A stretch of 33,825 nt of DNA, taken from a virus. Lineage: Duplodnaviria; Heunggongvirae; Uroviricota; Caudoviricetes. The translations under genes were made by a program, and so were the position numbers. The first letter of the stretch is position 1, and every line of letters begins with the position of its first letter. The stretch lies in the IMG/VR virus record IMGVR_UViG_2713896907_000008, positions 1 to 33,825 of that record. One strand, 5' to 3'. The notes under the pieces were generated by a model. The model ran no database searches and was not told the DNA's origin. It was given only the letters and a program-made list of their open reading frames with translations. Below are positions 4,749-7,818 of the stretch, in pieces.

Positions 4749-5902
4749 GCGTCGTATCCCCCCTGATCGCTGTAGTTACTCCTGGCTTTTGCCTTCAGCC
4801 TGCGTTCACGTTCATCAAGCTGGCGGGCCACCTCCCGCGCAATATCCTGCGCACTTTGTCCTGGCTGCGTCTGGATGATGATCTGCGTCGATGCCTCAAT
4901 CCTGTAAACGGGCGGCACAGTGGCTGCGCGACTCACAATTGCTTCTCCACCTTTCGCGGGAAGTGCCAAAGGGTGCAACGGTGGAAGCTCTGCTGGCGCG
5001 GCAGCAACGCCCATCATTCCGGCAACAACGGCAGCCAGTGCAGCTGTATTTCTCCGGCTGGTCACATTCGCCGGGCCGTTAACAATTTCCGGCCCGTTTT
5101 CACCGACGATGCCAAACTGCCCGCGCGGGATATAGCCGCCGCTGTCATACATCCCCGCAAAGCCATATCCCCATGACGGAAAACCACCCGATGGCATCAT
5201 CACTTTACCGTCTGTATTCACCGTCGCAGGTTGCTGACGCGTCACACTTTCCGGTAGTTTCGCCTTTGCGGCCTCTTTACTGACAACGCCGAGTTTCTCC
5301 AGCAACCAGGAAACGCCGGATTTCAGGGAGTCTAGCGGATGCATGACCATATTCAGCCCTTCCGCCAGTGCCTCCCCGAATCGCCGCCCCATTGCCGCTG
5401 CACTCTGCAGTTCGGCAGAGGTCGACTTAACGGGCGTCACCAGATCAGTAAACCAGCCCCACAGCGCCTGTACTTTGTCGCCAATCCACTGGAACACGGG
5501 CTTAAGCGGTTCGAATGCTGCACTGACGGGACCTGCCGCCGCTTTGAATCCTTCCACCACGCCACCAAGAAATGCGGTGATGGGTTGCCAGTATTTCCAG
5601 ACAACCAGTGCCACGCCCGCCAGTGCAGTAACCACAAGACCTATCGGACTGAGCAGAGCACCTAACAGACCAGATACGGCATACAGGACAACGCGCAGCA
5701 TCGCCAGTGGACCAGATGCCAGTACTCGCAGCACCGTGCCTGCGGCGGCCAGTTCACCGCGCAGTACCGCCAGAGGATTCATAAACATCACAGCAACAGC
5801 ACGTAAACCGGATAATCCAGACCGCAAAAGTGCAACCGGCGCACCTGCTACAGTTTTCAGGACATTTCCCGTCAGTGATGCCGTGCGGCGCAAAGACGAC
5901 AA
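4745..5902 (-). CDS. T: tail tape measure protein T, C-terminal reading frame
   Basis: Long Ala/Gly/Leu-rich ORF in the T position. This frame stays open upstream to about 6001 and is out of frame with the N-terminal part. Confidence 0.75.
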   Translation of the reverse strand: MSSLRRTASLTGNVLKTVAGAPVALLRSGLSGLRAVAVMFMNPLAVLRGELAAAGTVLRVLASGPLAMLRVVLYAVSGLLGALLSPIGLVVTALAGVALVVWKYWQPITAFLGGVVEGFKAAAGPVSAAFEPLKPVFQWIGDKVQALWGWFTDLVTPVKSTSAELQSAAAMGRRFGEALAEGLNMVMHPLDSLKSGVSWLLEKLGVVSKEAAKAKLPESVTRQQPATVNTDGKVMMPSGGFPSWGYGFAGMYDSGGYIPRGQFGIVGENGPEIVNGPANVTSRRNTAALAAVVAGMMGVAAAPAELPPLHPLALPAKGGEAIVSRAATVPPVYRIEASTQIIIQTQPGQSAQDIAREVARQLDERERRLKAKARSNYSDQGGYDA

Positions 5903-7818
5903 CGGCGCAGTAAGTAAACCTGCGGCGTTGCCCGATGAAGCAAGCCCGCGTCGCAGCAGTGCCAGTGGTGCGCCAGCCAGGACAACGCGCTGCTGGTTCG
6001 AGTTACTGCTGCCGTAACGGAAGGTAACGTTTTGATACCCAGCACAGAGAACCCCAGACGGATCACTGCCAGCGGCCCCAGTACTGCAGCTAACACCACC
6101 GCTAAGGTGCCGAGGCCCACGGTAACCGCAGCCACAACAGCCGCCGCTTTCATCAGTGTGCCCGTCAGTTCCGGGTTAGCTTCCACCCAGCGACGCAACG
6201 CCCCCGTGACGCTTTTCACCGTGTAAAGAATATCCATCAGCGGCTGGCGCAGCGTTTCACCCAGGCTGCTGAAGGTGTTCTGCGCTCCGGTTTTGACCAG
6301 CAACCACTGCGCAGAAAGTGAGTCCTTGTTGATGTCGGATTCTTTCTGCATGGAACCGAGCGCATCATTGCCCGCTGTCAGTTTTAGCTGGCGCTGCAGT
6401 TCCGGCAGGTTGTTTGCTAGTTTCGCCGCGTCATCGCCAAACTCTTTACCAAACAACATGGTCATGGCAGACAGACGCTTATCCTGCGGCAGTGCGTTCA
6501 CCTTCTCCAGCACACGCTGGATAGTTCCCATCGCATCCTTCGTCATCTGCTTTTCAATCACTTCAGGATTGAGTTTCAGCAGATTCATCCCTTCAAAGAA
6601 ACTCTTGCTTTGCATGGTGGCAATGGACAATTCACGCACCATCGCGTTTGCTGCACTGGCTGCAACCTCCGGCGCAGCGCCCAGTGTCAGGAAGGTGGAA
6701 CCCAGCGCCGCCGCTTTACGATAATCCAGACGGTCAGCCACACCGCCCAGACGTTGCATGACATCAATGATGTCTGCCCCTTTCGACATGGCGTTATCAT
6801 CCAGATAGTTCAGCGCATCACCGAGCTGTTCAATATTGCGGGTAGGGATTTTGTAGAGCTGGGCGATTTTCCCCAGACTTTCTGACAGTTCATCCGCTGG
6901 CAGCTCAAAGGCTGTTGCCGCCTTTGCTGCCGTGCTGGCGAAGGCCAGCAGGTCACGTTTCTGGTCTTCCCAGCTGTCGTCAGGATTTGCGACGTTCATG
7001 CGCGCACCACCTTCAACCAGTGCGGCAAAGTCCACAGCACCGTTTTCCATCGGCAACTGTTCGCTGGCAGCCTTGATGGCATCCTGCATTTCGTAAAAAC
7101 GCGCGGTGCGGTTGCCATTATCGTCACGCAGACCATTGACCTGCTTTGCCACACCTTTCATGACATCTTCCATGCTGGTATAGCTTTTTACTGCCGCCAT
7201 CACTGGTGCGCCCATTGCCAGCCCTGCAGCCGTGGTGGTGGCTCCGGCACCTGCAATACGATCACGCACCTCCAGCGAACGAGCATAACTGGCACGCGCC
7301 GCATTCATCCTGCGCTGAGCTTCCCCCAGTCGCTTCAGCCGCGCCTCTTGTTTCGAAAGTTCCTGGTTATAACGTGATGTTTCACGGGCTAAACGGGCAG
7401 TTGCTCCCGCATCATCTTTCGCAGAAATTCCCGCCCGGTACAGTTCTGCACGCACAAGCGCCGTTTGCTTCTGCAAATATTTTTGTTGTTCTTCCAGGCG
7501 TTGGACTGCCAGCGTTTGCCGACCTAAAGCCACAAGATGCCTTTGTGATGGTTGTTCCATCGCTTCCAGCTCAGAACTAAGCAAATTTGCCTTCTGTCTG
7601 GCATAGTTCAGCCTGTCGCCTAACTTTTTGTTATCGGCCTGCAGCTTGCGAAATTTTTCCAGGCTGTTACCCGCCTGATTGAGTTGCTTTAATGCGTCAC
7701 GGGAGTTTCTGATTGCGCCAGCCAGCTCTTTCGAACTGGCCTGTGCAGCACGGAATGGGCGGGTGAGTTTGTCAACCGCATTAAGAATGACCTGCAGGCG
7801 CAGGTTATTATCACTCAT
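5872..7818 (-). CDS. T: tail tape measure protein T, N-terminal reading frame
   Basis: 648-aa ORF starting MSDNNLRLQ, coiled-coil-like; its last ~40 residues (…WLAHHWHCCDAG…) look like out-of-frame translation. Confidence 0.75.
   Translation of the reverse strand: MSDNNLRLQVILNAVDKLTRPFRAAQASSKELAGAIRNSRDALKQLNQAGNSLEKFRKLQADNKKLGDRLNYARQKANLLSSELEAMEQPSQRHLVALGRQTLAVQRLEEQQKYLQKQTALVRAELYRAGISAKDDAGATARLARETSRYNQELSKQEARLKRLGEAQRRMNAARASYARSLEVRDRIAGAGATTTAAGLAMGAPVMAAVKSYTSMEDVMKGVAKQVNGLRDDNGNRTARFYEMQDAIKAASEQLPMENGAVDFAALVEGGARMNVANPDDSWEDQKRDLLAFASTAAKAATAFELPADELSESLGKIAQLYKIPTRNIEQLGDALNYLDDNAMSKGADIIDVMQRLGGVADRLDYRKAAALGSTFLTLGAAPEVAASAANAMVRELSIATMQSKSFFEGMNLLKLNPEVIEKQMTKDAMGTIQRVLEKVNALPQDKRLSAMTMLFGKEFGDDAAKLANNLPELQRQLKLTAGNDALGSMQKESDINKDSLSAQWLLVKTGAQNTFSSLGETLRQPLMDILYTVKSVTGALRRWVEANPELTGTLMKAAAVVAAVTVGLGTLAVVLAAVLGPLAVIRLGFSVLGIKTLPSVTAAVTRTSSALSWLAHHWHCCDAGLLHRATPQVYLLRRCRLCAARHH

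Follow-up and report, generated by a model that had tools for sequence, protein, structure and literature searches.

What becomes of a tail gene that is spread over two overlapping reading frames? The question is raised by the tail tape measure gene of a P2-like prophage in IMG/VR virus record IMGVR_UViG_2713896907_000008, of which the whole stretch analysed here (positions 1 to 33,825, that is, 33,825 nucleotides (nt); hereafter the window) carries the two frames between 7818 and 4745. A first-pass annotation, made from the sequence without database searches, had placed a shift of frame somewhere within 5875-6005 and had explained it by a single-base indel, either an inactivating mutation or a sequencing error, or, less probably, by recoding. 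We find it very probable that one unit of a (CTGG)3 repeat has been lost from the tape measure gene of a P2-like prophage of Escherichia albertii, likely through replication slippage, and that the C-terminal ~409 residues of the protein consequently go unmade.

A tape measure gene in two frames

Searching the window by tblastn with the intact tape measure protein of Klebsiella phage 4LV2017 (Peduoviridae; 1025 amino acids (aa)) showed that residues 1-616 match positions 7818-5971 at 98.9% identity (E = 0), and that residues 615-1025 match a different frame, at 5980-4748, with 96.1% identity (E = 0) and without an internal stop. The gene as a whole occupies 4745..7818 on the minus strand (3074 nt) and is 96.7% identical to the 4LV2017 gene over its full length. 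Its first open reading frame (ORF; 5872..7818, minus strand) comprises 648 codons, 616 for native residues followed by 32 that are out of frame, with a stop codon at 5872-5874, and its N-terminal part matches the Pfam family PhageMin_Tail (PF10145) with 68.6 bits against a cut-off of 33.2. The 32 out-of-frame codons (5875..5970, minus strand; HHWHCC...AARHH) specify the Cys/His/Arg-rich tail HHWHCCDAGLLHRATPQVYLLRRCRLCAARHH, which begins exactly where the native match ends, at aa 616. The remaining ~410 tape measure codons (4745..5980, minus strand) lie in the -1 frame relative to the first. Open from 6175 down to its stop at 4745-4747, this second frame overlaps the first ORF by 304 nt (6175-5872). 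The two-frame layout, the end of the first frame at 5872 and the out-of-frame nature of its tail are thus as the first-pass annotation had described them, although its starting point for the C-terminal frame, about 6001, has to be moved to 6175.

The assignment to the tape measure of a P2-family prophage, also made at first pass, is borne out by the surroundings of the gene. Reading along the window, sheath (FI), tube (FII) and the tail chaperones E and E' are followed by T, U, D and ogr, which is the tail-gene order of P2 and recurs in 4LV2017 and Escherichia coli HS. Like the P2 gpT-like tape measures of other Peduoviridae, among them those of 4LV2017 (YP_009789858.1), Escherichia phage Cartapus and the E. 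coli HS prophage (WP_001282791.1), to which it is 96-98% identical in nucleotide sequence, the window gene belongs to an E-E'-T-U-D-ogr series and attains the same length once the missing CTGG is restored; the prophage also sits next to ybjL, the site occupied by the homologous prophages of E. coli HS, K99B and F829. The PhageMin_Tail domain, full-length colinearity and a position between E/E+E' and gpU/gpD all agree with membership of the gpT-like family, but the single uninterrupted frame of that family is missing, because a deletion of 4 base pairs (bp) splits the window gene after codon 616. Unlike its relatives, the window copy cannot encode the C-terminal ~409 residues in frame, and we therefore regard it as a pseudogene of the P2 gpT-like family.

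Alignment to an intact P2-family tape measure gene was sufficient to locate the indel. Compared globally over the whole gene, the window (3074 nt) and 4LV2017 (3078 nt) differ by 98 mismatches and by one gap of 4 bases: where the intact homologue reads GTC CTGG CTGG CTGG CGC, the window reads GTC CTGG CTGG CGC. The residual (CTGG)2 tract maps to 5973..5980 (minus strand), inside the interval originally proposed for the shift, and putting CTGG back yields a single frame of 1025 codons without an internal stop. In the tape measure gene, (CTGG)3 is the sole tetranucleotide repeat with three or more units. Because the only gap is CTGG, the lesion is a lost unit of a tetranucleotide repeat, and the single-base indel of the earlier description is ruled out.

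The DNA adjoining the prophage points to the bacterium that carries it. The host flank (ybjL, ybjM, grxA) is only 90.3% identical to the best match among 5420 E. coli genomes, and the protein that matches its YbjL exactly is named Escherichia albertii by its source; together, these sequence matches identify the host, in all likelihood, as E. albertii. The window stops before any integrase is reached, and the far end of the prophage lies outside the stretch.

Unit number among related genes

The number of CTGG units was compared among IMG/VR relatives, retrieved with a pattern that spans the tract and allows unit number to vary, and among complete E. coli genomes. Three units are present in 93 of 96 IMG/VR matches, two units in 2 (L049 and L096) and four units in 1 (L059). 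Among the best 60 of 984 matching complete E. coli genomes, 58 have three units and 2 have two; the count of two-unit genomes (2/984) is a lower bound, because divergent haplotypes are inseparable. The two exceptions, K99B (ACWYAN_RS07620) and F829 (R8822_RS14510), possess 3074-nt genes that the annotation pipeline PGAP labels 'phage tail tape measure protein, frameshifted', and no four-unit allele on the common haplotype was found among the complete E. coli genomes. Phages 4LV2017, Cartapus and 500465-1 have three units, as does the single match in a contig collection holding one genome per species, and in a protein cluster of 9661 members all 14 listed members other than the queried 648-aa product have a length of 1025 aa. 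Among the full-length copies from the loci fetched, 65 genes measure 3078 nt, 7 measure 3074 nt, and one each measures 3082 and 3079 nt. The homologues are thus single 1025-aa genes, with exceptions that carry repeat-unit changes, rather than the pairs of genes that would have spoken for a natural boundary at this position. The distribution indicates that three units is the ancestral state, at least as judged from the alleles compared.

Within deposited phage records, two units occur only in a partial contig, 'Klebsiella phage KP12 clone KP12_3' (L106, OM835953.1), whose allele is identical to that of L096. This record, which comes from a phage lysate project, is classed in the Vequintavirinae, yet it contains P2-like tail genes, ogr, an integrase gene and a gene for a chromosome segregation ATPase. 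The contig was probably assembled from host or prophage DNA present in the lysate, and the record may be misfiled.

Do the two-unit alleles descend from a single contraction? Haplotype distances, taken both over the whole gene and within 400 nt on either side of the tract, exclude this for all of them together, the KP12_3 and L096 alleles being one and the same. By either measure, the nearest out-of-lineage allele of every variant has three units. Over the whole gene, the two-unit alleles of the window and of L049 each stand 64 differences from their nearest three-unit allele, that of F829 stands 54 away, that of K99B 12 and that of L096 only 1, and the four-unit allele of L059 does not differ from its nearest three-unit allele at all; within the local 800 nt, pairs of variant alleles are 13-42 sites apart. 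Since the variants differ mutually and each sits nearest to a three-unit allele, these distances indicate at least five separate contractions and one expansion, spread across E. albertii, E. coli, Klebsiella and a metagenome.

The K99B and F829 pseudogenes are the closest counterparts of the window gene in form, sharing with it the 3074-nt length, the two-unit tract and the prophage site. They nonetheless differ from the window allele at 79 or more positions, are each nearer to three-unit alleles, and reside in another host species. The F829 prophage (L104, NZ_OY754443.1), unlike that of the window, carries additional large deletions: its tube and chaperone genes are gone, as is the segment equivalent to window positions 10535-17827. 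It illustrates the further decay to be expected of a prophage with this lesion.

Length changes elsewhere in the gene are rare. Across 75 aligned gene copies, the sole other one is a 1-bp insertion in L010 (IMGVR_UViG_2872174743_000010), where a G converts GCGG to GCGGG at alignment column 2003 (about window position 5820), giving a frameshifted gene of 3079 nt. If indels were placed uniformly, the probability that at least 6 of 7 events fall inside the 12-bp tract would be P = 2.4e-14, a figure to be read with the caveat that the loci were retrieved with a pattern spanning the tract.

Resemblance to the lacI hotspot

In repeat and in copy number, the tract is the same as one long known from the laboratory: (CTGG)3 in the E. 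coli lacI gene is a classical hotspot of spontaneous mutation, at which one unit is gained or lost (Farabaugh et al., 1978, as summarised in PMC12606429). In the tape measure gene, too, exactly one unit is lost or gained, and both directions are seen among relatives. As far as the aligned genes allow us to judge, the lesion displays the features of a lacI (CTGG)3-type hotspot, namely an ancestral short tandem repeat of at least three units, a change of a single unit with no other indel in 3 kb, and a recurrence, of losses and of gains, that exceeds length change in the rest of the gene. The two cases differ in that the tract lies here inside a prophage structural gene and that its events are deduced from natural genomes, so that a mutation rate is known for lacI alone. 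A literature search combining 'tape measure' with CTGG returned no title or abstract concerning such a hotspot in tape measure genes.

The direction of the changes agrees with the comparison. The record of E. coli HS begins at thrL; in it, the homologous prophage is found at 0.94 Mb and its T gene is on the plus strand, an orientation that, given the layout of the E. coli replichores, we take to be co-directional with the replication fork. When lacI was placed in Pseudomonas putida, CTGG deletions prevailed if the gene was co-oriented with the fork, and insertions prevailed if it was opposed (PMC3485313). The 5:1 excess of deletions over insertions would fit the co-directional orientation of the T gene, although the numbers are small; as in lacI, deletions predominate where the orientation matches the fork.

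By analogy with lacI, we propose that slipped-strand mispairing at (CTGG)3, while the phage genome was being replicated as a prophage, would have removed one CTGG. The loss shifts the frame after codon 616, and translation past the deletion would add 32 wrong codons before meeting the stop at 5872-5874. Because translation would halt after these 32 residues, the C-terminal ~409 residues would not be made, and the C-terminal frame (4745..5980) is probably untranslated.

Alternative explanations

Four other accounts of the two frames have to be weighed against a slippage deletion. The window derives from a draft short-read assembly, so the gene might be intact in the true genome, with three CTGG units. 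Over the 17.8 kb compared, the window shares 100% identity with contig BBVY01000005.1 of assembly GCA_001514965.1. Three assemblies, namely GCA_001514965.1 and the Logan assemblies of runs DRR017198 and DRR017200, contain the exact 648-aa product, and the two-unit junction is found again, with zero mismatches to the window, in a Logan contig of a third run, DRR017199. The last of these contigs (L109, DRR017199_381) has its position 1 at window position 5988, 8 nt upstream of the (CTGG)2 tract; such a start could hint at local assembly trouble, and might stem from low coverage, from a second related prophage or from reads with differing unit numbers. Against an error, however, stand the identical two-unit junction in four assemblies from at least three runs and the same type of allele both in complete genomes of E. 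coli and in contigs of IMG/VR. The clean loss of a 4-bp unit is, moreover, atypical of short-read error. Because this clean loss is seen in several read sets, an assembly error is unlikely to be the cause of the deletion, and an intact gene in the true genome is very improbable; of the two causes that the first-pass annotation had offered, an inactivating, frameshifting indel therefore stands, and sequencing error is disfavored. Nor does the layout favor recoding, by which a -1 ribosomal frameshift or transcriptional slippage within the 304-nt overlap would restore a full-length tape measure. The C-terminal frame is indeed -1 and overlaps the first ORF, as in the tail-chaperone frameshifts of P2 (E/E+E') and lambda (G/GT), where a tail-assembly gene likewise has two overlapping frames with the second in the -1 frame, and P2-like phages use such a shift just one gene upstream. 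Unlike these systems, however, the overlap (6175-5872) is free of X XXY YYZ heptamers in every phase, its homopolymer runs do not exceed 4, and the layout lacks conservation: homologues have one 1025-aa ORF, and the two frames are absent from ~97% of the IMG/VR relatives and, with two exceptions, from the matching E. coli genomes identified; where they do occur, they are derived and lie on unrelated haplotypes. A shift at any point but the deletion itself would also add a garbled segment. A genuine -1 site, T TTT TTG in X XXY YYZ phase, is intact at 7984-7990 in gpE, one gene upstream of T, in the chaperone region that lies outside the lesion (gpE and E+E', 7811..8247, minus strand); a simulated -1 slip there gives an E+E' product of 145 aa, which terminates at 7811-7813 and overlaps the start codon of T at 7818, and gpE and E' share 98% and 100% identity with their 4LV2017 counterparts. 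This is the conserved frameshift of the tail chaperones, and in the vicinity of the lesion it is the one true recoding site. Recoding, already thought the less likely account at first pass, is extremely improbable and the least probable of those considered here.

A deleted repeat unit might still leave, or even be, something useful. The 648-aa N-terminal and a ~347-385-aa C-terminal polypeptide could be made separately and together still build a tail; gene callers predict a downstream ORF of 347 aa, and the KP12_3 record annotates both halves as tail proteins. A scan of start codons and the sequences upstream of them, however, found no convincing Shine-Dalgarno sequence at the candidate starts of the C-terminal piece, and independent translation of that piece was dropped as a candidate. 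The break coincides with a mutational hotspot and not with a conserved boundary, homologues are single genes, KP12_3 gives no support for a working split gene because it is probably host or prophage DNA and no proof of infectivity, and in F829 the prophage that bears the same lesion has decayed further. In our assessment, a functional split gene is accordingly as improbable as an assembly error. One might also suppose that the tract is a selected contingency locus, at which CTGG is reversibly gained and lost so as to turn tail production or prophage infectivity on and off, or at which the host selects inactivation. Gains and losses do recur in several hosts, and the repeat is conserved in the ~1000 homologues matched. 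Yet classical phase-variable loci have long tracts, with frequent ON and OFF alleles, whereas the tract here has only 3 units ancestrally and 2-4 units among all alleles; variants are rare, at least 0.2% of the matching complete E. coli genomes and 3% of the IMG/VR matches; the repeat lies inside coding sequence, and its conservation is explained by the S-W-L-A-G that it encodes; and the two-unit prophage of F829 has simply decayed further. We hold such a contingency locus to be very unlikely. A broader form of the idea, hardly more probable, is that (CTGG)3 is a built-in weak point by which lysogens in several genera would time and again, and in principle reversibly, bring a P2-like prophage into a tail-less state.

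A loss of one CTGG unit from the E. albertii prophage, probably by slippage, remains the reading that we prefer, and several points weigh against it. The evidence for the junction consists of assemblies, not raw reads, and an artefact common to the three runs, or a mixed population of two- and three-unit molecules, is conceivable; DRR017198, DRR017199 and DRR017200 may, besides, stem from one strain. No close intact ancestor of the window allele was found, the nearest three-unit gene being 64 sites away, and the two-unit count in E. coli (2/984) is only a minimum. Phage mosaicism weakens arguments for independence that are drawn from whole-gene distance, although the cases of L096 and L059 are unambiguous. 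Finally, a second P2-like prophage elsewhere in the genome could complement the defect, the comparison having covered the window.

Consequences for the prophage

If the tape measure gene is broken, is it broken in an otherwise sound prophage? The 4LV2017 genes Q, P, O, N, M, L, X, holin, endolysin, LysA, LysB, R, S, V, W, J and I, and likewise FI, FII, E, E', U, D, ogr and A, are all represented in the window by full-length, single-frame counterparts, and gpH matches its 4LV2017 equivalent except at a variable C-terminus (residues 1-424 only). Among the late, lysis and replication genes compared with 4LV2017, the tape measure thus appears to be the only visible lesion. Tape measure proteins serve as the template for the tail tube, and without them tails are not assembled, as seen with P2 T amber mutants, lambda gpH and T4 gp29. 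Because the tape measure is broken while the other late genes compared are intact, the prophage is most likely tail-defective, as the first-pass annotation had reasonably expected of an inactivated tape measure, and since tape measures template the tube, a product that lacks the C-terminal ~409 residues should lead to DNA-filled heads without tails. A relative with an intact allele, Cartapus of E. coli LF82, releases encapsidated genomes, although plaques or myovirus particles were not obtained (PMC9928086).

Substitutions private to the window allele, of which there are 12 when it is compared with 65 intact alleles, are distributed as might be expected after loss of function downstream of the break, albeit not significantly so. 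Upstream, 5 are synonymous and 1 is non-synonymous (6082-7282), versus 2 synonymous and 4 non-synonymous downstream (4891-5754; Fisher p = 0.24), a difference that hints, without reaching significance, at relaxed constraint past the frameshift and at drift of the C-terminal portion since the deletion.

Other variable features of the window

Elsewhere in the window, positions 10142-12172 form a probable invertible tail-fibre segment that would govern host range, a module with no counterpart in 4LV2017. Domain matches identify a serine invertase at 10142-10825 (minus strand; Resolvase and HTH_7), and 35-nt inverted repeats, 89% complementary, lie at 10764-10798 and 12138-12172. Oppositely oriented ORFs are found between the repeats, at 10736-11170 and 11175-11399 on the plus strand and at 11368-11823 on the minus strand, and the calls within the segment include a tail-fibre Gp53-like C-terminal domain and a Caudo_TAP fibre-assembly protein.

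A second variable region separates the portal gene Q from the replication gene A. It encodes a 353-aa protein with an N-terminal PIN_12 domain (24489-25550, minus strand; E = 2e-26), a 111-aa acidic ORF without a family match (26075-26410, plus strand) and a DinI-like protein (26603-26908, minus strand; PF06183, E = 1e-22). In place of the PIN_12 protein, 4LV2017 has a retron effector and a reverse transcriptase at this position. PADLOC gave no match for the 353-aa protein, which may be the product of an uncharacterised defence or cargo gene. Further along, a CI-like repressor gene lies at 32908-33789 (plus strand). Because its product is only 43% identical to 4LV2017 CI while the neighboring CII-like gene is 100% identical, the comparison suggests that the immunity type differs from that of 4LV2017.

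Implications

Several practical points follow for the annotation of this prophage and its relatives. Positions 4745-7818 are to be read as one frameshifted tape measure pseudogene and not as two tail genes, and the cause is a defined loss of a 4-bp repeat unit rather than a slip in base calling. Compared with the first-pass annotation, what is new is the repeat itself, its identity with the lacI hotspot and its recurrence in other lineages. The type of event is textbook, and annotation pipelines already label such genes as frameshifted; current understanding is not challenged by it. The prediction that the E. albertii prophage would by itself make no tails is relevant wherever prophages are scored as 'intact' or inducible.

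Were the tract, against our expectation, to act as a built-in weak point, a prophage in the contracted state would keep its immunity, cargo and lysis genes while releasing no infectious particles, and recurrence would reflect selection together with mutation bias. On the reading that we prefer, a textbook laboratory hotspot is seen at work in nature, where it would stand behind nearly all length changes of a common phage gene in E. coli, E. albertii and Klebsiella; and because nearly all such changes fall within it, the (CTGG)3 tract may serve as a natural marker for slippage-driven prophage decay.

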